50,747 nt of DNA from positions 1 to 50,747 of the forward strand of contig JACNJM010000159.1 of the NCBI GenBank assembly GCA_014382605.1, read 5' to 3'. The notes beneath the pieces are model-generated. The model did not search any database and was not told the origin of the DNA. It saw only the letters and a list, made by a program, of their open reading frames with translations. How positions within the stretch are numbered: position 1 is the stretch's first letter; each line of letters opens with the position of its first letter. Position numbers and translations under genes: made by a program. The DNA is from Anaerolineae bacterium. Its GTDB lineage: Bacteria > Chloroflexota > Anaerolineae > Anaerolineales > UBA11858. This document shows positions 1 to 50,747 of the stretch, one piece after another.

Positions 1-33
1 CTGCGTTCTTGGCGTTCTCTGCGGTGAAATTGC
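1..33. repeat. Octamer-arm palindromic repeat (family R), right arm only, truncated by the window edge
   Basis: CTGCGTTCTTGGCGTTCTCTGCGGTGAAATTGC. Confidence 0.5.
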
Positions 34-1526: not shown

Positions 1527-1664
1527 TGGCGGGGGGGACGATCACGCAAAGCCGCCAAGACACAGAGAAATAATAGCGATTTCGTGCTCCGCTCGGAATG
1601 ACAGGATCGGTCAAACTACCATTGACCCGTACAAATATTCGCGCTCGCGAAAAGCCTTGTGCCG

Positions 1665-4198: not shown

Positions 4199-4471
4199 CT
4201 ATTTATTGGTTTGACCGGTGCGAGCATTCGGGTTGGCCTTATATTTACTCAGATAAGGAGCCAAGCGGCGAACGCGCTGTGCAAGTTTTTTGCTTTCTAC
4301 AGGCTGCATGCGGGTAAATTCTGCCTTGGTGCGTTTCGACTTTCGCCGACGCAAATGGCTTTTGCCACCTTTGGTGCGCACGAGTTTACCAGAACCCGTA
4401 ACCCGAAAACGTTTTGAAGTTGCTTTGTGGGTCTTTAGCTTGTATTTCCCTTTTTTGGGTTTTCTAGCCAT
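4199..4471 (-). CDS. rpmI: 50S ribosomal protein L35 (with short N- and C-terminal extensions)
   Basis: Contains 'KTHKATSKRFRVTGSGK'. An SD GAGAGGAG lies upstream, and the gene sits between infC and rplT. Confidence 0.92.
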   Translation of the reverse strand: MARKPKKGKYKLKTHKATSKRFRVTGSGKLVRTKGGKSHLRRRKSKRTKAEFTRMQPVESKKLAQRVRRLAPYLSKYKANPNARTGQTNK

Positions 4472-4479
4472 AATTACAC

Positions 4480-4540
4480 TCCTCTCACAAAAACACCGCG
4501 GCGCAAGGTAAACTCGAGCTACCCGGCAGTTAACCGCGGA
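4480..4540 (-). terminator. Terminator/attenuator-like structure between infC and rpmI
   Basis: On the minus strand, CCGCGG...(nested GGTAG/TTACC stem)...CCGCGG is followed by TGTTTTTGTG, just upstream of the rpmI SD. Confidence 0.35.
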
Positions 4541-4585
4541 TAATTTGTAAAATAATTTCGTTCTTGCTAATTATTGCGTATTGTT

Positions 4586-8112: not shown

Positions 8113-8208
8113 TTATGAACAAGCCCAAAAAGGTGGCAGCCCCCCATACGCACTCTTTTTGCGGGATTTTTTCTGCGAAGGCGTGAACCTGAGCAGTTAC
8201 TCTATTTT

Positions 8209-10881: not shown

Positions 10882-10951
10882 TTAACGCGAATAAGCGAAT
10901 GTTTATTCAACAACATTCGCGCTTTTCGTCCATTCGTGTCATTCGCGTTTA
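10882..10951. repeat. Family R variant (GCGAATR units), asymmetric arms
   Basis: TTAACGCGAATAAGCGAATG-loop-CATTCGCG...ATTCGCGTTTA. The outer 9 bp and inner 7 bp are complementary. Confidence 0.5.
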
Positions 10952-12321: not shown

Positions 12322-12404
12322 TAAAGACGGAAGACCAATGACGGATGACGGGAGGGCAAAAGACTCATGCGTACCATGCTCGGTCTCCTGTCTTCCGTCT
12401 TCTG
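12322..12404. repeat. Family R variant (GACGGAWG units)
   Basis: AGACGGAAGAC (12325-12335) pairs perfectly with GTCTTCCGTCT (12390-12400). The element fills the whole epimerase/flippase intergenic gap. Confidence 0.5.
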
Positions 12405-13385: not shown

Positions 13386-13391
13386 ACAAAG

Positions 13392-13413
13392 TCCTAATCC
13401 GGGTAACCCGGAA
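13392..13413 (-). promoter_or_regulatory. Conserved 5'-UTR stem-loop plus SD module (copy 1, epimerase)
   Basis: Minus strand reads TTCCGGGTTACCCGGATTAGGA, 6 nt before the ATG. Confidence 0.45.
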
Positions 13414-13430
13414 TAAAAGCAAGATATTCT

Positions 13431-13506
13431 TGAACCGCAAAGACGCAAAGGTCGCTAAGGTTTTCTATTTTTCTCGGCGTTCTTCGCGTCTTTGCGGTGA
13501 AATTTC
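13431..13506. repeat. Family R full copy
   Basis: TGAACCGCAAAGACGCAAAG...loop...CTTCGCGTCTTTGCGGTGAAATTTC. There is a 13-bp perfect stem (13434-13446 with 13486-13498). Confidence 0.7.
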
Positions 13507-13522
13507 TGACAGGTGTAAGACG

Positions 13523-13560
13523 CCAAAAACGAACAACCGACAGCACTATGCCATCGGTTG
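13523..13560 (-). terminator. Intrinsic terminator after the UDP-sugar dehydrogenase gene
   Basis: Minus strand reads CAACCGA-13 nt-TCGGTTG followed by TTCGTTTTTGG. Confidence 0.55.
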
Positions 13561-13576
13561 CCAGCGGTCGTTAAAA

Positions 13577-14893
13577 CTACAGACGGAAAACTTTGGGGTT
13601 ATCGCGCTGCGCGCTGCCCAGGGCGTTGCGGGTATCGACAATACATTTGGCGGTTTCCAAAATCTCAGCATAAACGTAGTCGCTGTGATTGGTGATAATT
13701 ACGACACAATCAGCTGCTTTCACTGCAGACATCAAATCGGGGACACTTTGAAGTTCAAACTCTTCTTCTTTGATAAAGGGAATGTATGGATCATGAAAAC
13801 TTACCACAGCGCCACTTTGCTCCAGCAAGCCAATCACATCCAATGCAGGAGATTCGCGCAAATCGTCAATATCAGGCTTGTAGGCTACACCCAGCACCAG
13901 GATGTTGCTGCCCTTGAGCGATTTACTCTGATCATTTAGTGCATCTTGCACTTTGCGAGCCACGTAACGCGGCATCCCCAGGTTGATTTCGGAGGCCAGC
14001 TCGATGAAACGGGCAGTGTAATTCAACGAGCGCAATTTCCATGAAAGATAGAGTGGATCAATGGGGATACAGTGGCCGCCCAGACCTGGCCCGGGGGTGA
14101 ATTTCATAAAACCGAAGGGCTTGGTAGCCGCGGCGTCAATCACTTCCCAGACGTCAATGCCAAGACGGTCGCACATCACGGCCATTTCGTTGACCAGGCC
14201 GATATTAATCATGCGGAAGGTGTTTTCGAGCAGCTTCGCCATCTCGGCAACTTCGGAGGAGGTGACGGAGACAACGGTCTCCAGCGCGCCGCGGTACCAG
14301 GTAGCCGAAACTTCAGAACAGGCATCGGTAATACCGCCGATCACCTTGGGGGTGTTAATGGTCGTCCAGTCTTCCCGACCAGGATCCACTCGTTCGGGCG
14401 AAAATGCCAGGAAGAAGTCTTCACCAACGACCAAATCGGTATCATCTCCCAACTGTGGCAACAGAATTTCGCGCGTGGTGCCAGGATAGGTGGTCGATTC
14501 GAGTACCACGACCATACCAGGGTGCATATATTTGGCAAGTTCCGTAGTCACGGAGAGAATAAACGAGAGATCAGGGTCACCGGTTTTGCGTAATGGCGTG
14601 GGTACACATATGCTGACGGCATCGGCCTCGGCAAGAGCGGCGAAATCGGTGGTGGCTTCAAGCCTGCCCGCTTCCACGAGTTGAGCAACCAATTCAGTGG
14701 GTACATCTTGAATATAGCTCTCGCCCTTTTTGAGGGCCTCAATCTTGCGTTCATCGGGGTCAATGCCAATAACATTGAATCCGGCTTCCGCAAACACGGT
14801 GGCAAAAGGCAGGCCAACATAGCCCAAACCTAATACAGCAACTTTTGCGGTTTTGTTCTCAAGTTTTTCAATCAATTGGTTTTTGGTATCCAT
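13577..14893 (-). CDS. UDP-sugar 6-dehydrogenase (UDP-GlcNAc/ManNAc/Glc dehydrogenase family)
   Basis: 'VAVLGLGYVGLPFATVFAEAG' and the catalytic-Cys motif 'GGHCIPIDP'. ATG 14893 has an AGGA SD. Confidence 0.9.
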   Translation of the reverse strand: MDTKNQLIEKLENKTAKVAVLGLGYVGLPFATVFAEAGFNVIGIDPDERKIEALKKGESYIQDVPTELVAQLVEAGRLEATTDFAALAEADAVSICVPTPLRKTGDPDLSFILSVTTELAKYMHPGMVVVLESTTYPGTTREILLPQLGDDTDLVVGEDFFLAFSPERVDPGREDWTTINTPKVIGGITDACSEVSATWYRGALETVVSVTSSEVAEMAKLLENTFRMINIGLVNEMAVMCDRLGIDVWEVIDAAATKPFGFMKFTPGPGLGGHCIPIDPLYLSWKLRSLNYTARFIELASEINLGMPRYVARKVQDALNDQSKSLKGSNILVLGVAYKPDIDDLRESPALDVIGLLEQSGAVVSFHDPYIPFIKEEEFELQSVPDLMSAVKAADCVVIITNHSDYVYAEILETAKCIVDTRNALGSAQRDNPKVFRL

Positions 14894-14901
14894 AATGCCT
14901 T

Positions 14902-14923
14902 TCCTAATCCGGCAACGCCGGAA
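14902..14923 (-). promoter_or_regulatory. Conserved 5'-UTR stem-loop plus SD module (copy 2, dehydrogenase)
   Basis: Minus strand reads TTCCGGCGTTGCCGGATTAGGA, 8 nt before the ATG. The stem pair is G-C in copy 1 and C-G here. Confidence 0.45.
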
Positions 14924-14935
14924 CAAACATTTTTT

Positions 14936-15011
14936 TACCACAAAGACACGAAGGCACGAAGAAAAACATAAAAAATCCTTTGTGTCTTTGTGCCTTTGCG
15001 GTGAAATTTTT
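14936..15011. repeat. Family R full copy
   Basis: ACCACAAAGACACGAAGGCACGAAG-AAAAACATAAAAAATC-CTTTGTGTCTTTGTGCCTTTGCGGTGAAATTTT. Confidence 0.7.
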
Positions 15012-18508: not shown

Positions 18509-18561
18509 AGCCACGTCCCTGCGCTACAATCTAATTTGAAATAAAAAACGATTGCTTAGGC

Positions 18562-18585
18562 TTACGCCTTCGCAATCAAGATTTC
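18562..18585. repeat. Family R half copy abutting the 18586 palindrome
   Basis: TTACGCCTTCGCAATCAAGATTTC; compare CGCCTTCGCGATGAAATTC at 44946-44964. Confidence 0.35.
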
Positions 18586-18638
18586 GCAAAAAAGGGTGTG
18601 CATGGGGTGCGTCGCACCCCATGCACACCCTTTTTTGC
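18586..18638. terminator. Perfect 26-bp-arm palindrome with A6/T6 flanks (bidirectional-terminator-like) between divergent pcrA and holB
   Basis: GCAAAAAAGGGTGTGCATGGGGTGCG-T-CGCACCCCATGCACACCCTTTTTTGC. Confidence 0.4.
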
Positions 18639-18667
18639 GATTTTCCCTTTCGAGAAAACTATCGAAA

Positions 18668-20435: not shown

Positions 20436-20489
20436 AAAAACTCAAAGGTGTGCCGCGATAAAATGCTCGCGGCACACCTTTGAGTTTTT
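20436..20489 (+). terminator. Intrinsic terminator after the lipoprotein gene
   Basis: AAAAACTCAAAGGTGTGCCGCGA-8 nt-TCGCGGCACACCTTTGAGTTTTT. Confidence 0.75.
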
Positions 20490-27247: not shown

Positions 27248-27302
27248 AGCTATCCAGCTCGCGGGAAAATTCTCAGCGCCAAAATACTGGTAATTGCTCA
27301 GG

Positions 27303-27328
27303 CTAAACGCCTTCGCAGCGAGAATTCC
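27303..27328. repeat. Family R half copy abutting the 27327 terminator
   Basis: CTAAACGCCTTCGCAGCGAGAATTCC. Confidence 0.35.
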
Positions 27329-27365
27329 GAAAAAAGGTGGGGGCGACGCCCCCACCTTTTTTCGG
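27327..27365 (+). terminator. Intrinsic terminator after the SCP2 gene
   Basis: CCGAAAAAAGGTGGGGGCG-A-CGCCCCCACCTTTTTTCGG. Confidence 0.8.
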
Positions 27366-29283: not shown

Positions 29284-29340
29284 CGAAAAAAATAAGGGTG
29301 GCTGAGGGGCAAAGCCCCTTAGCCACCCTTATTTTTTTCG
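29284..29340 (+). terminator. Intrinsic terminator after the second histidine kinase
   Basis: CGAAAAAAATAAGGGTGGCTGAGGGGC-AAA-GCCCCTTAGCCACCCTTATTTTTTTCG. Confidence 0.8.
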
Positions 29341-31098: not shown

Positions 31099-31156
31099 GA
31101 TTTAACAAACATAGAGCTTACGCAACACGGTGAAAAATATCCCAAAAATAGGGGTC

Positions 31157-33685: not shown

Positions 33686-33757
33686 ATAACCGCAGATAGA
33701 CACAAATAAACGCTGATTTTCTCTATCCGCGTTTCTCTGTGTTTATCCACGGTTTCT
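33686..33757. repeat. Family R variant full copy (AGATAGAC/ACAAATAA units)
   Basis: ATAACCGCAGATAGACACAAATAAACGC-loop-TATCCGCGTTTCTCTGTGTTTATCCACGGTTTC. Confidence 0.45.
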
Positions 33758-34505: not shown

Positions 34506-34553
34506 AAGTTGAAGGTTACTTGTGCAACACACCAACCTTCAGTTTTCAACCTT
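34506..34553. repeat. Family B hairpin repeat between convergent genes
   Basis: AAGTTGAAGGTTAC...CAACCTTCAGTTTTCAACCTT. Confidence 0.5.
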
Positions 34554-35382
34554 AAACGATGAGATTATCAATAAGTCTCGTCCGCCCAACCCGCACGGCC
34601 ATCGAGAACAGCACACGGTCAACTTTGCCTTTGTGTTCTTGCAAGGTATCAGGATGCGCGCAGGAAATATATTCCAGATCGGCCAGTGGCTCGGCGTTGA
34701 CAATCTCGGTGACGAGGGCGCGCAACTTGTCGGCGTCGTGCTGCCCGGCGTGGAAAGCGTCTTTAGCAGCGTTCAGCGAGCGCGAAAGCACCGTGGCCGC
34801 CTGGCGTTGAGCCGAGTCAAGATAGGTGTTGCGGCTGGAGAGCGCCAGCCCATCGGGTTCACGCACAATCGGGCAGACGACAATCTCGATGGGGAAATTC
34901 AAATCTTGCACCATGCGCCGAATCACGACCGCCTGCTGGGCATCTTTTTGACCAAAATAAGCCCGCTGTGGCTGCACCCCATTGAAGAGTTTCGCCACAA
35001 CCGTAGTCACGCCGCGAAAATGCGTCGGGCGGCTGGCGCCTTCCAGCACTTTGGTCACTTCATCTACTGTCACCCAGGTCTGAAAGCCTTCAGGGTACAT
35101 CACTTCGGGCGTTGGCGTCCATAACAAGTCTACACCCGTATCTTCGAGCAAATGCGAATCGCGTGCCAGATCGCGCGGGTACGAAGCCAAATCTTCAGTG
35201 GGGGCAAACTGTGTGGGATTGACAAAAATGCTTGCCACAACCGAGGCACATTCTTCGCGGGCACGGCGCGCCAGCGAGAGATGGCCTGCATGCAAATAGC
35301 CCATCGTGGGCACGAAACCTACGGGGCCAGTGAGTTTTGCGCGTTCGGCGCGCAGTTCAGAGATAGTAGTTACAGTTTTCAT
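34552..35382 (-). CDS. panC: Pantoate--beta-alanine ligase
   Basis: 'PTMGYLHAGHLSL' and 'FGQKDAQQ'. Confidence 0.95.
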   Translation of the reverse strand: MKTVTTISELRAERAKLTGPVGFVPTMGYLHAGHLSLARRAREECASVVASIFVNPTQFAPTEDLASYPRDLARDSHLLEDTGVDLLWTPTPEVMYPEGFQTWVTVDEVTKVLEGASRPTHFRGVTTVVAKLFNGVQPQRAYFGQKDAQQAVVIRRMVQDLNFPIEIVVCPIVREPDGLALSSRNTYLDSAQRQAATVLSRSLNAAKDAFHAGQHDADKLRALVTEIVNAEPLADLEYISCAHPDTLQEHKGKVDRVLFSMAVRVGRTRLIDNLIV

Positions 35383-35455: not shown

Positions 35456-36430
35456 TCACTGAGGAAACTCCATGGACTCTGTGCCTCTGTGGTCAGGTTT
35501 CTCAGCCATCGGTCTTCCATCCCCAATCAATGCTTTTACAAGCAGCCACAGGGTATGATTTACAGGTGTAGGGATACCAAATTTTTCACCAGCCCGCACC
35601 ACGGCACCACAGATGGCGTCAATTTCGGTTGGCGCGCCGCGGGCCACATCTTGCAGCATCGATGATCGGTTCTGCGCCGTGCGGCGGGCCACATCTTCGG
35701 CCACCGCGGCGGGGTCATCAAAGGGCAGCGCCACACCGCGGGCGGCGGCCACGGCAGCCACTTCGCGGGCGGCAGCGAACATTAATTGACGCGCTTCAGG
35801 GCGATTCAATAACTCGCCGTTGGAGGCGCCCAGCAGGGCGGTCAGTGGGTTGATGGCCGCGTTGACGGCCAGTTTGCCCCAAATCAGCGCATCCACATCG
35901 GGAACGATTTGTGTGGGAAAGTTGGCCTGCTCAAAAAATTGGATCAGCGGCCCAAGGGCAGGATTCGCCCCTAGCGAGATAACTCCCTCCCCGCCGGGAC
36001 GCACATGACCCGGCCCGAGCAGGGTTGCCCCAGCGGTGGTGGAACCTAACTCCACGCGGCCTGCACCGAGCGCGTCTATCAAGGCTTCACGGTTCCCCAG
36101 GCCGTTTTGCAAGCTCAGGGCAATACCATCGTCGGCCAAACATTGCGCCAGTTGACGCGCCGCCCGTTCCGTTTGCCAGGCTTTGACCAGCACCAGCGCA
36201 AATCGCGCTCCGGCGCATTCAGCAGGATTATCCGTGGCGGTGACGGGGATAAATTGTTCTCCACCTTCAGAATCCACCAAACGGATGCCGCGCCCGTTGA
36301 TAGCGGTGATCCCTTCGGGCCAGGTGCCCAGCATGGAAACAGAAGCACCTGCGAGCACGAACCGTGCCGCGAACAGGTTGGCGAGGGCGCCGATTCCAAT
36401 AATTAGCACGTCAAAACGTCTATCCGTCAT
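35456..36430 (-). CDS. panE: 2-dehydropantoate 2-reductase (C-terminal ~20 aa run into a repeat remnant)
   Basis: 'VLIIGIGALANLFA' Rossmann motif, located between panB and panC. Confidence 0.85.
   Translation of the reverse strand: MTDRRFDVLIIGIGALANLFAARFVLAGASVSMLGTWPEGITAINGRGIRLVDSEGGEQFIPVTATDNPAECAGARFALVLVKAWQTERAARQLAQCLADDGIALSLQNGLGNREALIDALGAGRVELGSTTAGATLLGPGHVRPGGEGVISLGANPALGPLIQFFEQANFPTQIVPDVDALIWGKLAVNAAINPLTALLGASNGELLNRPEARQLMFAAAREVAAVAAARGVALPFDDPAAVAEDVARRTAQNRSSMLQDVARGAPTEIDAICGAVVRAGEKFGIPTPVNHTLWLLVKALIGDGRPMAEKPDHRGTESMEFPQ
35477..35501. repeat. Family R half copy inside the 3' end of the panE ORF
   Basis: CTCTGTGCCTCTGTGGTCAGGTTTC. Confidence 0.4.
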
Positions 36431-37435: not shown

Positions 37436-37466
37436 TCTTTGTGTCTTCGTGCCTTTGTGGTTAAAC
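37436..37466. repeat. Family R half copy overlapping the add stop codon
   Basis: CTTTGTGTCTTCGTGCCTTTGTGGTTAAAC. Confidence 0.45.
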
Positions 37467-40007: not shown

Positions 40008-40043
40008 GGTTTCACCACGAAGGCACAAAGAGCGCAAAGTGCC
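40008..40043. repeat. Family R half copy (left-arm type)
   Basis: GGTTTCACCACGAAGGCACAAAGAGCGCAAAGTGCC. Confidence 0.45.
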
Positions 40044-41339: not shown

Positions 41340-41374
41340 ATTTTTACAGGGCTAATCACAAAGCGTGCAAAGGT

Positions 41375-42229: not shown

Positions 42230-42272
42230 CAAAAAAAGGGAGTGTGCTGCGAGCAGCACACTCCCTTTTTTT
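42230..42272. terminator. Bidirectional intrinsic terminator between the convergent ytxH-like and peptidase genes
   Basis: A7-GGGAGTGTGCTGC-gag-GCAGCACACTCCC-T8. Confidence 0.8.
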
Positions 42273-44422: not shown

Positions 44423-46063
44423 TTATTCTTCCCGCAGTAACGCCAACGCATACTCATTCTGATAAATAATTCTGTAACCGGGCAATTCATCGGCATAGGC
44501 ATCACCATAGAATCTTTGCCAGGCGCGCATCTGATCGGGATCAACTGCGGTTTCAATCGCATCAGGTTGGGTGAACTCTAACACATAATTCATTTCCAGC
44601 AACAAAATATCGGGTTGTTTCTCATGGATATAGTCATAAGTTGCCAGCTTCCATTTCATCAGCACATCGTAGTTGGGTTTGGGCGGCACGTAGGCGGTCA
44701 GATCACGGTAGATCGCCAAAGGCTCATCGGCAAGCCCCATCTCGGTTAACCGCGCTTCCACTTCGTGGTAGAAAGCAATACTCTCAGACCGCTCTTCACG
44801 GTAAAGAATATCCGTATAAATTTTGGCATCCTGTTGGAGATACAACCCATATTGGATCACTAATAAAAATAAGAGGATAAATACAAAATCGCGAAGACAC
44901 GAAGAACGTAAAGATTTTTTATTTTGTTTTTCTTCGCGTGCTTCGCGCCTTCGCGATGAAATTCTTTCAGGGAAGAGATGCACCAGCCCCGAAGCAAGCG
45001 GGATTGCCATCGGCAAGAAGTATAGCGGGCGCACGGTTGAGCCGCCCACCGCCAAGAAGTAGGGTAGCGAAAAGGCCAGAATCATCACGTTTGTGAAGCG
45101 GAAGCGCGGTGTGCGCATCCCCTGGATCAGCCCGGCCAGCATCAGCAGCAGCGTAAACCACTGCCCGTAATACGGCCAGATGATGCGTTGTATTTTTTCC
45201 TTTGTGAGATTCCAGTCAGCGTATTGCGTGTAATATCCGGCGCGCGTCTGAAAAATAAGTTGCTGCTGCCGGGCTAGAATTTCTGCCCGGGTTTGAGGAA
45301 TAAGCAGCAACGGATTCGAGATCACCAACCCCAACGCCATCACCGCCACAAAGGAGAAGGCCACCCACAGAGCGCGGCGAAGTTCCAGTTTTTGATCTTT
45401 CAACCCCCAAAGAATATATAGCGGAACCGCCAGTGCAAAAAATGCCCCGGCAAATTTAACGCTCACACCTGCGCCGCACAGAGCCGCAGCAATATAAAAA
45501 TTCCGCCCGAAGCGGAACTCGTCTTTTTGCAGCATATAGAAGATGAGTGTGATCAGCAAAATCGACAGGCTATCGGGATGCCACCAGAGATTATTCAACA
45601 CCGTCGCGGGCAACGCCAACAGAAACGCAAACAGCCCCAGAATTTTCGCAGTGGATTTGCGTTCTGTTTGCAAATCTACCATCAGGGCCACGGAGAAAAT
45701 CACCGGCAGCACGCTGACCAACTGGCGCAACAGCAGCATAATGGTAGCTGAATCTTGCCCCCAGGCTGCCCCTACGAAAAGGCGATAGGGCAGCAGCATG
45801 ATCGCCGAGAACAGATAGAAAGGGTAGCCGTAATCGTAATGTAAATACACCACAAAACGGCGAATCGTCTCAAAAATTGTATCGCCCGGCGTGAGCATCC
45901 GCAAAACATGCTGGTATTGGGCAAACTCATCCTTCTCGAAAATGGAAAGCATATTCCAATCCTGAGCGCCGGTAAAATTGGGGAAGATCATCAGCGAGAA
46001 ATAAATCAGGCCGATGACGAGCATCCCCCAGATGGCAGAACGTGAGAATGTATTTGATTTCAT
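44423..46063 (-). CDS. GT-C fold membrane glycosyltransferase with C-terminal soluble domain; carries an in-frame palindromic-repeat insertion
   Basis: Multi-TM N-terminal 365 aa with the loop 'EKDEFAQY'. Then a repeat-encoded basic loop, one TM, and a soluble domain of about 150 aa. Confidence 0.6.
   Translation of the reverse strand: MKSNTFSRSAIWGMLVIGLIYFSLMIFPNFTGAQDWNMLSIFEKDEFAQYQHVLRMLTPGDTIFETIRRFVVYLHYDYGYPFYLFSAIMLLPYRLFVGAAWGQDSATIMLLLRQLVSVLPVIFSVALMVDLQTERKSTAKILGLFAFLLALPATVLNNLWWHPDSLSILLITLIFYMLQKDEFRFGRNFYIAAALCGAGVSVKFAGAFFALAVPLYILWGLKDQKLELRRALWVAFSFVAVMALGLVISNPLLLIPQTRAEILARQQQLIFQTRAGYYTQYADWNLTKEKIQRIIWPYYGQWFTLLLMLAGLIQGMRTPRFRFTNVMILAFSLPYFLAVGGSTVRPLYFLPMAIPLASGLVHLFPERISSRRREAREEKQNKKSLRSSCLRDFVFILLFLLVIQYGLYLQQDAKIYTDILYREERSESIAFYHEVEARLTEMGLADEPLAIYRDLTAYVPPKPNYDVLMKWKLATYDYIHEKQPDILLLEMNYVLEFTQPDAIETAVDPDQMRAWQRFYGDAYADELPGYRIIYQNEYALALLREE
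44886..44965. repeat. Family R full copy located in-frame inside the GT-C ORF
   Basis: AAATCGCGAAGACACGAAGAACGTAAAG-loop-TCTTCGCGTGCTTCGCGCCTTCGCGATGAAATTC. Confidence 0.7.
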
Positions 46064-46094: not shown

Positions 46095-46167
46095 CCACTG
46101 AGAACGCCGAATTCGCGGAGAAAAACTAAGAAAACTTTGCATTCTCCGCGTACTCTGCGGTTTCAGG
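46095..46167. repeat. Family R variant; the right arm forms the last codons and stop of the O-antigen-ligase-like ORF
   Basis: ...CGCGGAGAA-loop-TTCTCCGCG... (9-bp perfect inner stem), ending GCGGTTTCAGG. Confidence 0.45.
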
Positions 46168-47604
46168 ATTCAGCCCAGTTCCAGGGGCGTATACCTGCAC
46201 GCTGGCGGTAATCAGACCGAAAACAACCCACATATTGGGGATAGCAAACGAATCGACTGAAAATCCCACGCCCAGAAAAACGACCAGCGAGAGCAGCCCG
46301 GCCAAGCCCCAGTAACGCGGCTCACGCTCTGGCGATAGCAAAAGATATAGCGTCGCACCCAGCACCGCCACCACAAAAGCCACAAACGCTGCCGAGCCAA
46401 TCAGGCCGGTCTCGGCGAGAATGCGGGCGAACATATTCTTGGGCACCACCAAACGATTACGTCCTTCGGCAGGAGTAAATTTATATACCAATTCCGGGGT
46501 GGGATAAAGCGGGCGATCCGTAAGCGTCTCTTCAAAGTAAAACGTGTAATTACCCAGGCCAATCCCCGTCCAAGGATAATCTTCATAGATGCGGTAAGCG
46601 GTCTCCCAATAGGCTATGCGCTGGCTAACCGCAATATATTGCACATACGAGCCAGTGGCGTTTTCATCGGTCCAATAACTCCAAAGGCGAGAGAAATAGC
46701 GATTACGCGAGCCAAAGGCAAACACTACCGCCAGCAAGACAGCCAGCATCAACCCTACTTGCAACAAACGCCGCGTAATGCCGCGCCAGTTCAGGCTGCG
46801 ACCGGGTTTTCGTCCGCCGCGAAACAAGAAGGCCAGTACTAATTGCAATCCCCACAGCACATAACCGGTACGCGAATAGGTATACACCAGCACAAATGAA
46901 GCCCAGACCAGCAACAACAATTCCACGGTCACAAAGCGCCAACGGCGACGAAAGGCCGAATAGCCCGACATAACAGCGGCAAACAGCCAGGGCATCAGTA
47001 AAAAAGTGATCTGCTCGGCGAACCAGTTGGGTTCATAGGTCATACCAGAGATGCGCGTCTCGAACAGGCCGCGCACCGAGAAGAAGCCCTGCAAATATTC
47101 GATCAGGTCAAAATATTCGGGCGTGTAAAACAGAATATAGCCAATTTGCACACAGCCCCACAGCAAGGCGATGCCAAATCCGGCGTACAACCAGCGCAGG
47201 GCAAAACGCAGTTCTTCAACGGTGCGCGGGATGACGGCCACGGTGATATAAAAAGCTGCGCCCAATAACAGCGTAGCAGTCATACGCACGGCCCGCGAGG
47301 ACACACTGATGCCGATATCCGGATCAATGCCGCGGGTACAGGCCAGGGCAGTACTCGCCAGCGCAACCAGCACAAAAGCCCCCAGCGGCAAAGCCGTGCG
47401 CGGCGTGGAATGCGTGAACAACCGTGGCAGAGTGTAAATCAATAGAAGGACAATTAATGGATAAATAGATAGTGGTCGCACTTCGGTGCGACCACCGACG
47501 CCACCCGGAAAGTAGGGGAAGCTGGTGACCGGTAAAGTGAGTAGAAACAGCGCCCAAAAGATTTTCTGCACTCGTTCCACTCGCTGAATCCAAACCCGTG
47601 GCAC
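46126..47604 (-). CDS. O-antigen ligase/polymerase family (Wzy_C domain) membrane protein
   Basis: About 12 TM segments, with 'YTYSRTGYVLWG' in the Wzy_C-type region. The GTG start overlaps the upstream stop (TAGTG). Confidence 0.7.
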   Translation of the reverse strand: MPRVWIQRVERVQKIFWALFLLTLPVTSFPYFPGGVGGRTEVRPLSIYPLIVLLLIYTLPRLFTHSTPRTALPLGAFVLVALASTALACTRGIDPDIGISVSSRAVRMTATLLLGAAFYITVAVIPRTVEELRFALRWLYAGFGIALLWGCVQIGYILFYTPEYFDLIEYLQGFFSVRGLFETRISGMTYEPNWFAEQITFLLMPWLFAAVMSGYSAFRRRWRFVTVELLLLVWASFVLVYTYSRTGYVLWGLQLVLAFLFRGGRKPGRSLNWRGITRRLLQVGLMLAVLLAVVFAFGSRNRYFSRLWSYWTDENATGSYVQYIAVSQRIAYWETAYRIYEDYPWTGIGLGNYTFYFEETLTDRPLYPTPELVYKFTPAEGRNRLVVPKNMFARILAETGLIGSAAFVAFVVAVLGATLYLLLSPEREPRYWGLAGLLSLVVFLGVGFSVDSFAIPNMWVVFGLITASVQVYAPGTGLNPETAEYAENAKFS

Positions 47605-48671: not shown

Positions 48672-48755
48672 AAATTAACGCAAGAACGCAAAGAAACAAA
48701 GGCGCAGAGATTTTTATGCTTTTCTTTGCGTCTTTGCGTCTTTGCGTTAAATTTC
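48672..48755. repeat. Family R full copy
   Basis: AAATTAACGCAAGAACGCAAAGAAACAAAGGCGCAGAG-loop-TCTTTGCGTCTTTGCGTCTTTGCGTTAAATTTC. Confidence 0.7.
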
Positions 48756-49962: not shown

Positions 49963-50747
49963 TTATCGCAATTGTTGGTAAAGTCGCAAAAGGCGGGCTG
50001 ACACTGTGCTCCAGTCGTAGTCTTGTTCGTAAGCACGGCGGGCGTTGGCAGCGAATTCGGCGTACAAAACCTTATCGAGTTGCAAACATTCCAACGCTTT
50101 AACAAGCTCCGGTCGGTGCCCGTATTCAACAACCAGGCCGCAATTTTCAGCCTGCACAATGCGGTCAATATTCGTATCTGCGGCGACGATGACCGGTTTG
50201 CCCAGCATCATGGCTTCAAAGAGTTTGTTAGGGCTGGCATAACGATGATTGGGAATCGCCGGGTCGTAGAGTGCCAGAACGACATCCGCCGCGGCGGTGA
50301 GGGCTAAAGCACGCTTATACGGGATACGCCCATGCCAGGTGACGTTGGGAAGTTCATCAGACAACGCCAATATTTGATTTTCATCGCCGCCAAACCCGGC
50401 CAGGTCGAGATGCCATTCGGGATGATCGCCAAGCACATTGAGTACATTTAGCAAACCGCGCTCGGTTTGTAAAAGTCCAACATAAACAAGATTTAGTGTT
50501 TTTTTAGCAGAAAAATCACCGCGAATAGGCGAAGAACGCCAAGTTTTTCTCTTTTGTTCTTCCTGGCGCTCTTTGCGTCTTCGCAGTTTCAAAAATTTCA
50601 TTTGAGTTTGGCTTGTTCGAGTTAGCGTATTGTAGTCGTAATCTCTCGGTGTATTCAATACCACAGCTCGATTCTGCGGCAAACGCTCCCCAACCTGCAC
50701 CCAGCGGGATTCGTCGGTAATGATGAGCGCATCTACGCGGCGAATGG
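49963..50747 (-). CDS. Glycosyltransferase family 4, 5'-partial (open to the window edge); carries an in-frame palindromic-repeat insertion in the interdomain linker
   Basis: C-terminal GT-B domain with 'SPNKLFEAMMLGKPVIVAAD'. The frame stays open upstream of the track start through 50747 ('...IRRVDALIITDESRWVQVG'). Confidence 0.8.
   Translation of the reverse strand, partial: IRRVDALIITDESRWVQVGERLPQNRAVVLNTPRDYDYNTLTRTSQTQMKFLKLRRRKERQEEQKRKTWRSSPIRGDFSAKKTLNLVYVGLLQTERGLLNVLNVLGDHPEWHLDLAGFGGDENQILALSDELPNVTWHGRIPYKRALALTAAADVVLALYDPAIPNHRYASPNKLFEAMMLGKPVIVAADTNIDRIVQAENCGLVVEYGHRPELVKALECLQLDKVLYAEFAANARRAYEQDYDWSTVSARLLRLYQQLR
50513..50599. repeat. Family R full copy located in-frame inside the partial GT4 ORF
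   Basis: AAATCACCGCGAATAGGCGAAGAACGCCAAG-loop-TTCTTCCTGGCGCTCTTTGCGTCTTCGCAGTTTCAAAAATTTC. Confidence 0.65.

Follow-up and report, generated by a model that had tools for sequence, protein, structure and literature searches.

Small dispersed palindromes of bacterial genomes include repetitive extragenic palindromic (REP) sequences, Rickettsia palindromic elements (RPEs) and MITEs (miniature transposable elements with inverted repeats). To our knowledge, palindromes of these types have been described chiefly in Proteobacteria and a small number of further groups, and a given family rarely extends beyond one genus or family. Here, we analyze a family of hairpins with arms built of tandem octamers, which recurs throughout contig JACNJM010000159.1 (assembly GCA_014382605.1; all 50,747 nt, hereafter the window) from an Anaerolineae bacterium of the phylum Chloroflexota. 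On balance, we read these hairpins as a non-autonomous, foldback-like palindromic insertion element, whose lifestyle is nearest to those of REPs, RPEs and MITEs and whose arms evolve by slippage of octamers.

REPs are stems of 20–40 bp tagged by GTAG or CGTC (PMC3733652). Like REPs, bacterial interspersed mosaic elements (BIMEs) and REPINs (REP doublets forming hairpins), the octamer elements are short, dispersed, mostly intergenic imperfect palindromes of high copy number, with no target-site duplication and no coding capacity of their own. They also share with REPs a conserved terminal tag beside the stem, occasional intragenic locations and an occurrence in many phyla (PMC3733652). However, they are 60–90 bp or longer, carry the tag AAATTTMAC/GTKAAATTT instead of GTAG or CGTC, and have tandem-octamer arms, a design that does not feature in the closest survey, which deals with GTAG- and CGTC-tagged REPs (PMC3733652). 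No REP-associated tyrosine transposase (RAYT) was found in the window or among the top 25 Pfam families of 148 open reading frames (ORFs) neighboring element copies. Like RPEs, the octamer elements lie between genes as well as in frame within genes, at tolerated surface, loop or linker sites, and their copies are old and diverged (for RPEs, compare PMC3733652). RPEs, in contrast, are ~100–150 bp long, restricted to Rickettsia and not composed of tandem short units; no sequence resemblance was seen, the RPE consensus itself not having been aligned. We know of no transposase for RPEs. With MITEs (Correia/NEMIS, ERIC, Nezha and RUP), the octamer elements share terminal inverted repeats (TIRs) around a non-coding core of 50–300 bp, positions near or within operons and hairpins formed in transcripts, whereas the target-site duplications, parent insertion-sequence TIRs and near-identical copies of classical MITEs were not found for them in the loci analyzed.

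The long inverted arms of variable-number tandem units, in a mostly non-coding element that folds back on itself and whose arrays expand and contract, also recall eukaryotic Foldback transposons (compare PMC4079207, PMC3169594). This likeness is architectural only, with no homology implied, as Foldback transposons are eukaryotic, kilobase-scale elements with units of 10–31 bp or more, P/MULE-type transposases and target-site duplications. The STRR (short tandemly repeated repetitive)/TAACTGA repeats of cyanobacteria and Beggiatoaceae are similar in their tandem 7–8-nt intergenic units, their occurrence in distant lineages and their slippage (PMC4679880), but they are mostly direct arrays in fixed orientation upstream of start codons (PMC4679880), do not form dyad-symmetric hairpins with conserved termini and have other unit sequences. 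CRISPRs consist of direct repeats of 24–48 nt with unique spacers, unlike the dispersed single hairpins described here, with 8-nt units in inverted arms. Intrinsic terminators are a poor match, since the loops measure 12–27 nt and no T-run follows the stem, and a terminator scan reported no full element. Rfam 15 gave no match in the window at gathering thresholds; at E≤1, two of the three matches fell on an unrelated terminator-like palindrome, and the third, RsaJ, which scored 21 bits where 100 are required, coincides in part with the copy at 14936. The element sequences were not found in the open-access literature, where keyword searches returned general work on REPs, STRRs and foldback elements; subscription journals were outside the search. 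An earlier interpretation of the DNA without database searches (the sequence-only reading) had regarded the design as unlike classical REP/BIME, ERIC, Correia and CRISPR repeats and as apparently undescribed. For REP/BIME and CRISPR, the differences in size, tag and layout bear out the first point, and the second stands provisionally.

Each element comprises two inverted arms around an A/T-rich loop, each arm consisting of a terminal tag and two to five tandem octamers. The left-arm octamers read CRCRAAG+N and those of the right arm the complement, N+CTTYGYG, while the termini constitute an extended near-palindrome, AAATTTMAC ... GTKAAATTT. The copy at 14936–15011 serves as a type example: TTTTTTTAC-CACAAAG-A-CACGAAG-G-CACGAAG / AAAAACATAAAAAATC / CTTTGTG-T-CTTTGTG-C-CTTTGCG-GTGAAATTTTT. 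Copies in the window are 70–87 nt in total, with arms of 16–31 nt and loops of 12–27 nt, and the A/T-rich loop occurs facing either way. An asymmetry of the ends (GTGAAATT versus GTTAA) was rejected as a sign of fixed polarity, being a single K/M position within the symmetric terminus. Variant units, or dialects, had already been noticed in the sequence-only reading. GACGGAWG, CGCGAATR, ACAGATAR and CGCGGAGAA each differ from CRCRRAG by one or two substitutions, and each is present in all units of both arms of its element, a pattern of concerted evolution within the element.

All nine full hairpins are present where the sequence-only reading had placed them, including a perfect 13-bp pairing of 13434–13446 with 13486–13498. 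Together with one copy truncated by the window edge, three good solo arms and two weak remnants, they make up the window inventory. Some of the half copies claimed earlier did not hold. Those at 37436–37466 and 40008–40043 are good solo arms, but 31117–31140 is doubtful, 35477–35501 is a mere two-unit remnant, and 18562–18585 and 27303–27328 belong to a separate motif (see below). The terminal pattern YTTYGYGNYTTYGYGRTGAAATT has five matches in the window at ≤2 mismatches, compared to 0.01 expected. A unit-array detector identified five paired elements, three solo left arms and two solo right arms, against means of 0.04, 0.17 and 0.05, respectively, in 300 Markov simulations. The nine full copies are also more stable than mononucleotide shuffles by 3.0 to 8.3 standard deviations (SD) of minimum free energy. 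The hairpin family is thereby confirmed as real and enriched in the window, as had been claimed.

An origin in chance, low-complexity sequence or faulty assembly is already refuted by this enrichment over shuffles, by identical copies in independent assemblies, and by copies in long-read complete chromosomes and isolates (OZ243937, Methylobacter tundripaludum, Kouleothrix aurantiaca), even though metagenome scaffolds do hold 100-N gaps with duplicated 55-nt ends. As a separate caution for BLAST comparisons, such gaps, flanked by duplicated 55-mers, mimic insertions in scaffolds assembled with metaSPAdes in ENA (L001 8898–8997, L002 3527–3626 and others; compared loci are denoted by L numbers). 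Apparent 155-nt insertions in metagenome contigs were therefore discarded as 100-N scaffold gaps with 55-nt overlaps, not indels.

Syntenic loci of relatives, with L134 as the outgroup, show the gain of copies between genes and, in frame, within tolerant protein loops and linkers, followed by long persistence at the same site. L134 has the same dehydrogenase operon with no element at any of four intergenic sites, and two of the gene pairs there abut or overlap. The copy at the end of the Wzy-like gene is missing in L130. Between the GT378 gene and the neighboring 349-aa gene, the window and relatives at 75%, 65% and 61% identity each have an octamer hairpin, of a different sequence every time. 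The same intergenic site can hold different dialects, as at 13431, where the canonical units of the window correspond to GACGGAAG units in L132.

Within elements, the length of an arm changes by exact multiples of 8 nt in either direction, a variant unit becomes homogenized over all units of both arms, and loops accept nested palindromic elements. The sole within-element differences among contigs of the same species (99.5–99.7% identical) are additions of 8 nt (L126) or 16 nt (L125, L127 and L128) at 48736, yielding alleles with three, four or five octamers in one arm. Nesting is evident in L131, where a hairpin of ACAGATRAA dialect lies within the loop of an outer CACGAAG element, and in L096, where a GTAG-tagged REP doublet is located inside an element.

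The sequence-only reading had assigned the copies almost entirely to gene boundaries. Most are indeed intergenic, but the copies at 44886–44965 and 50513–50599 are in frame inside genes, and the Wzy-like gene takes its C-terminal codons and its stop from the one at 46095–46167. The gene spanning 50513–50599 (− strand, from 49979 past the window end) encodes a 409-aa GT4 glycosyltransferase, with the insert in the stretch that links its N- and C-terminal domains. GT4 homologues at 55–64% identity (374–385 aa) are without the insert segment, and the nearest relatives (65–75% identity) have a diverged element-derived segment at the same spot, as exemplified by FNHNTLKGTGGHQEHKEKKALS in L129, encoded by TTTAACCACAAT...CTTCGTGGTTAAA. 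A third in-frame copy, just past the window end in a PMT-like protein, is common to L130 and L131. Conserved domains continue on both flanks of the in-frame copies. We limit the claim of in-frame insertion to the lineage of the window, because 14 pattern matches inside long ORFs of other genomes were mostly spurious ORFs in GC-rich DNA, and a match in a penicillin-binding protein of L105 was due to chance. As the copies are in frame and the arms slip by 8 nt, which is not a multiple of 3, those in surface-glycan glycosyltransferase and membrane-protein genes could, as a corollary of the broader view set out below, act as contingency (phase-variation) switches and as a source of new loops.

These locations also bear on integron-type attC sites, which delimit gene cassettes and have core sites of the form RYYYAAC / GTTRRRY. 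The octamer elements resemble them as imperfect 60–90 nt palindromes between co-directional genes, and some of their termini (...TTAAC / GTTAA...) look like attC core sites. Nevertheless, we consider it highly improbable that they are attC sites. Copies lie inside coding sequences and in both orientations, the window contains no integrase, and tandem-octamer arms are foreign to attC. Moreover, the flanking housekeeping and glycan genes are syntenic and keep the same order in L134, where the element is absent.

Arms are complementary to their own partners at 82.6% of positions, compared to 74.9±0.8% for arms from other loci. Since unrelated arms pair almost as well as true partners, the common unit motif accounts for most of the pairing as a side effect, and the excess for own partners is modest but significant. 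Mismatches within arms are mostly transitions (2.2:1), a ratio biased by the tolerance of the detector for R/Y changes. The proposal of the sequence-only reading that pairing, and not primary sequence, is under selection is not supported by these values, nor by the conservation of the CRCRAAG unit and the GTKAAATT terminus across ~15 phyla. Its remark that no strand is consistently favored by G:U pairs agrees with our count on the sense strand, where G:U pairs are not in excess over A:C (94 versus 90, p=0.65) and which is the more stable one in 19 of 35 copies. No orientation bias was detected with respect to transcription (22:22) or local GC skew (58:58).

A host-selected RNA structure would require pairing to be under selection, the hairpins then serving in glycan operons as punctuation or in transcript processing and stability, as RNase III sites or 3′-exonuclease barriers. 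Such a role would be consistent with the long, stable stems and with hairpins kept at the same sites, with paired changes on both sides, in relatives of 61–75% protein identity. It would also suit a distribution mostly between co-directional or convergent genes and less often between divergent ones (36, 19 and 6 copies, respectively, in a first count; 44, 18 and 13 in a second). We regard this explanation as unlikely, however, given the equal orientations and the lack of a G:U excess noted above, the copies in frame within coding regions, and an L134 operon that works without any copy. The need for pairing alone does not explain why the unit sequence is conserved across phyla, and the copies are not canonical terminators, which the genome has separately.

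One genome per GTDB species was scanned with a 23-nt terminal pattern. At least 120 loci matched across ~15 phyla, with the same architecture, compared to ~9 chance matches expected by our own arithmetic. The family is not specific to this genome; the sequence-only reading had overlooked the cross-phylum spread, the in-frame copies and the 8-nt unit-number polymorphism. The matches come from Chloroflexota, Planctomycetota, Acidobacteriota, Verrucomicrobiota, Cyanobacteria, Bacteroidota, Nitrospinota, Nitrospirota, Desulfobacterota, Alpha-, Beta- and Gammaproteobacteria, TA06, WOR-3, FCPU426 and Cloacimonadota. The carriers are mostly uncultured environmental lineages, but include long-read complete chromosomes (e.g. 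OZ243937) and isolates of M. tundripaludum and K. aurantiaca. A matching left arm in the same layout lies upstream of about half of the matches listed. The 829 kb of matched loci contain 63 paired elements, at most four per 8 kb, and ~120 solo arms, many of which are the two ends of longer elements with unrelated cores of 76–230 nt. Across these loci, arms of 23–35 bp flank loops of 6–60 nt or the longer cores, and both the CRCRAAG unit and the terminal tag are kept at the sequence level.

This conservation is what would be expected of a DNA protein-binding array or cruciform, in which CRCRAAG units are iterated sites about a dyad for a nucleoid, topoisomerase or recombinase factor. BIMEs, for instance, bind gyrase and IHF. 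The symmetry and orientation independence of the elements would also fit, as would the 74.9% complementarity of unrelated arms, which indicates that the motif, and not the partner, is conserved. However, the analysis turned up no candidate protein, a spacing of 8 bp is out of step with the helical repeat, arms may have anything from two to five units, even within one species, and dialects that change the motif persist. The in-gene copies and decayed remnants also resemble drifting insertions rather than maintained sites. We therefore consider a binding array quite improbable as the explanation of the family. Neither this role nor one in RNA excludes a selfish origin.

Copies that appear at new sites, nest, lie in frame in genes, decay to remnants and occur irrespective of orientation, together with TIR-like arms that enclose arbitrary cores, are better explained by an insertion element than by an RNA motif, a terminator or attC. 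Mobilization would occur in trans, through an enzyme that is not encoded nearby and that recognizes the tag and the octamer array. A route through a hairpin or single strand (HUH/Y1-like), or through a recombinase, rather than classical DDE cut-and-paste, is conceivable and would fit the lack of target-site duplications. Both templated correction within the palindrome and the shared motif would contribute to keeping the arms complementary. In either orientation, the element is predicted to fold in the transcript into a stem of ~20–30 bp, which could incidentally become an RNase III site or an exonuclease barrier in operons. The octamers themselves were rejected as accumulated target-site footprints, as generic copies show no duplication.

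Several results weigh against mobility. All window copies differ from one another, with no near-identical pair that would signal recent transposition. Same-species contigs carry the same copies, and no clean pair of filled and empty sites with exact junctions was recovered among close strains. Neither an autonomous copy nor a mobilizing enzyme was found among the window ORFs, the 148 neighbor ORFs and the candidate long-core pairs; arm pairs 0.4–3.4 kb apart, considered as autonomous copies, enclose gltD, a LysR regulator, a dioxygenase-like ORF or ordinary genes, or represent two elements. Target-site duplication was not found, the longest common substring of the flanks being 4.97 compared to 4.84±0.16 for mismatched flanks. 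The family is almost absent from mobile DNA, with one weak plasmid match and no phage match in BLAST searches with the consensus and one match in 2.9 million viral contigs, and no vehicle for cross-phylum spread is evident from these scans. In addition, long retention at orthologous sites with compensatory changes, as in the copy upstream of the dehydrogenase gene, where CACAAAG/CTTCGTG of the window is CACTAAG/CTTAGTG in L132 (both sides changed), is also expected of a selected structure. Our confidence in a non-autonomous insertion element is thus only moderate, because neither a mobilizing activity nor recent identical copies nor exact filled and empty junctions were found.

A broader view, that the hairpins of at least ~15 phyla form one superfamily, propagated or maintained by a widespread enzyme that reads octamer arrays, and are a bacterial counterpart of foldback transposons, is put forward tentatively and seems to us possible rather than probable. 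As one design (tag, octamer unit and loop style) spans Chloroflexota to Proteobacteria, a mobilizing or maintaining activity may be common in environmental bacteria. The family is a tractable case, outside Rickettsia, for seeing how palindromes that insert in frame and slip by 8 nt shape proteins and operons, and its cultured carriers, M. tundripaludum and K. aurantiaca, make it experimentally testable. Annotation is affected as well, since copies make genes longer, mislead gene callers and are translated to junk peptides (...TKDTKG..., ...LCVLCGE...).

Multi-copy matches in Phototrophicaceae belong to a separate MITE with its own 28-bp TIR. This MITE, of ~360 nt, occupies L066 4851–5208 and at least seven further loci of chromosome OZ243937, in a Phototrophicaceae metagenome-assembled genome, with copies 94–98% identical; it is found in L031, L034, L047, L086, L087 and L110, with short forms in L037, L044 and L051. 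The TIRs are imperfect: one end has GGRAATGTATCC..TTCGGTTGA, the opposite end the related TCAACCGAATTCGATACACTACC. The MITE shows clear 8-bp target-site duplications, which were readily detected by the same flank inspection as was applied to the octamer elements. A solo octamer arm with GGTGAAATT lies just inside the right TIR, as cargo. In L013, nested palindromes of ~215 nt (2377–2591, 2684–2798 and 4334–4556) flank gltD, with outer units CGCAAAGG and inner units GATCCACAGATTT and GGGCGGATT; a hairpin of GGGGACT heptamers, resembling cyanobacterial STRR1, is located beside octamer elements of the same locus.

Table 1. Octamer-arm elements, solo arms and remnants in the window (z, minimum free energy in SD relative to mononucleotide shuffles)
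Position	Form	Setting and remarks	z	Orthologous sites
1..33	Right arm with GGTGAAATT terminus, 2-unit right array	Copy cut by window edge		
1545..1567	Solo left-arm remnant, 3 units ACGCAAAG CCGCCAAG ACACAGAG	Missed by sequence-only reading		
10882..10951	Full hairpin, CGCGAATR dialect	Flippase/glycosyltransferase intergenic	-4.2	L134 without copy, genes overlap
12322..12404	Full hairpin, GACGGAWG dialect	Epimerase/flippase intergenic	-3.0	Orthologues in L132 and L133, none in L134
13431..13506	Canonical, 3+2 units, loop 22	UDP-sugar dehydrogenase/epimerase intergenic	-6.1	GACGGAAG-dialect element in L132; none in L133 or L134
14936..15011	Canonical, 3+3 units, loop 16	Upstream of UDP-sugar dehydrogenase gene	-8.3	L132 with compensatory changes, L133 decayed, L134 none
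33686..33757	Full hairpin, ACAGATAR/ACAAATAA dialect	Between two + strand genes	-6.9	Dialect recurs nested in L131 and as remnant in L133
35477..35501	Weak 2-unit right-arm remnant, CTCTGTG C CTCTGTG GT	3′ end of panE		
37436..37466	Solo right arm, 3 units and GGTTAAAC terminus	Good solo arm		
40008..40043	Solo left arm, GGTTTCAC terminus and 3 units	Good solo arm		L130 with only 18 nt here
41357..41372	Weak 2-unit left-arm remnant	Missed by sequence-only reading		
44886..44965	Canonical	In frame in 509-aa membrane-protein gene (44423..45952, − strand); encodes RISSRRREAREEKQNKKSLRSSCLRDF		
46095..46167	Full hairpin, CGCGGAGAA dialect	End of Wzy-like gene (46126..47604, − strand)	-5.0	Other element in L129, none in L130, nested composite in L131
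48672..48755	Canonical	GT378 gene/349-aa gene intergenic; unit number of one arm varies		
50513..50599	Canonical, 87 nt = 29 codons	In frame in GT4 glycosyltransferase inter-domain linker; encodes about MKFLKLRRRKERQEEQKRKTWRSSPIRGDF		

According to their NCBI names, the window proteins belong to an uncultured Anaerolineales/Anaerolineae metagenome-assembled genome, and contigs 99.5–99.8% identical to the window are present in several ENA metagenome assemblies. The window contains housekeeping genes and two surface-glycan clusters. No window ORF matches a transposase, RAYT or integrase family of Pfam, in agreement with the sequence-only reading, which had seen no transposase or RAYT there. Across the matched loci, the genes next to copies are diverse, with 197 Pfam families among the 148 neighbor ORFs and none enriched; no transposase is among the top 25 families listed.

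The UDP-sugar dehydrogenase/epimerase intergenic region holds two distinct structures, as a terminator-like hairpin (GGCAACCGATGGCATAGTGCTGTCGGTTGTT and CGTTTTTGG; 13532–13562, − strand) is located directly past the dehydrogenase stop, upstream of the octamer element. A further small hairpin, TTCCGG-N3-5-CCGGA, directly adjoins the Shine-Dalgarno sequence AGGA, 7–10 nt ahead of the epimerase and UDP-sugar dehydrogenase start codons (13390–13415 and 14900–14925, − strand). It is conserved in relatives (L132 9960–10000, L133 8240–8271 and L131 15375–15400) and may control translation.

Perfect or near-perfect palindromes in which a GG(G)TG(T/G)G... stem is enclosed by an A-run and a T-run lie at 18584–18640, 27327–27365, 29284–29340, 20436–20489, 42231–42272 and ~8125–8160. 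They look like bidirectional intrinsic terminators, and several of the stems share their starts (AAAAAGGGTGTG, AAAAAGGTGGGG). The one at 18584–18640 is a perfect 28-bp palindrome flanked by two genes that start divergently, uvrD (18471, − strand) and holB (18668, + strand), where a terminator would be unusual. The two rejected half copies of the octamer element are part of a ~40-nt motif, TGCTYAGGYT-N-ACGCCTTCGCAR-N5-6-AATYYCG, which has three copies (18552–18590, 27292–27330 and, on the reverse strand, ~8165–8205). All three copies adjoin a terminator-like hairpin on its 5′ side, each in sense orientation relative to the gene that follows, and the motif has no Rfam match. It could be a leader, an attenuator or a 3′-UTR (untranslated region) element.

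The long + strand ORF 34522–35124 is spurious; the real gene is panC (34552–35382, − strand; Pantoate_ligase, E=3e-108), followed by panE and panB.

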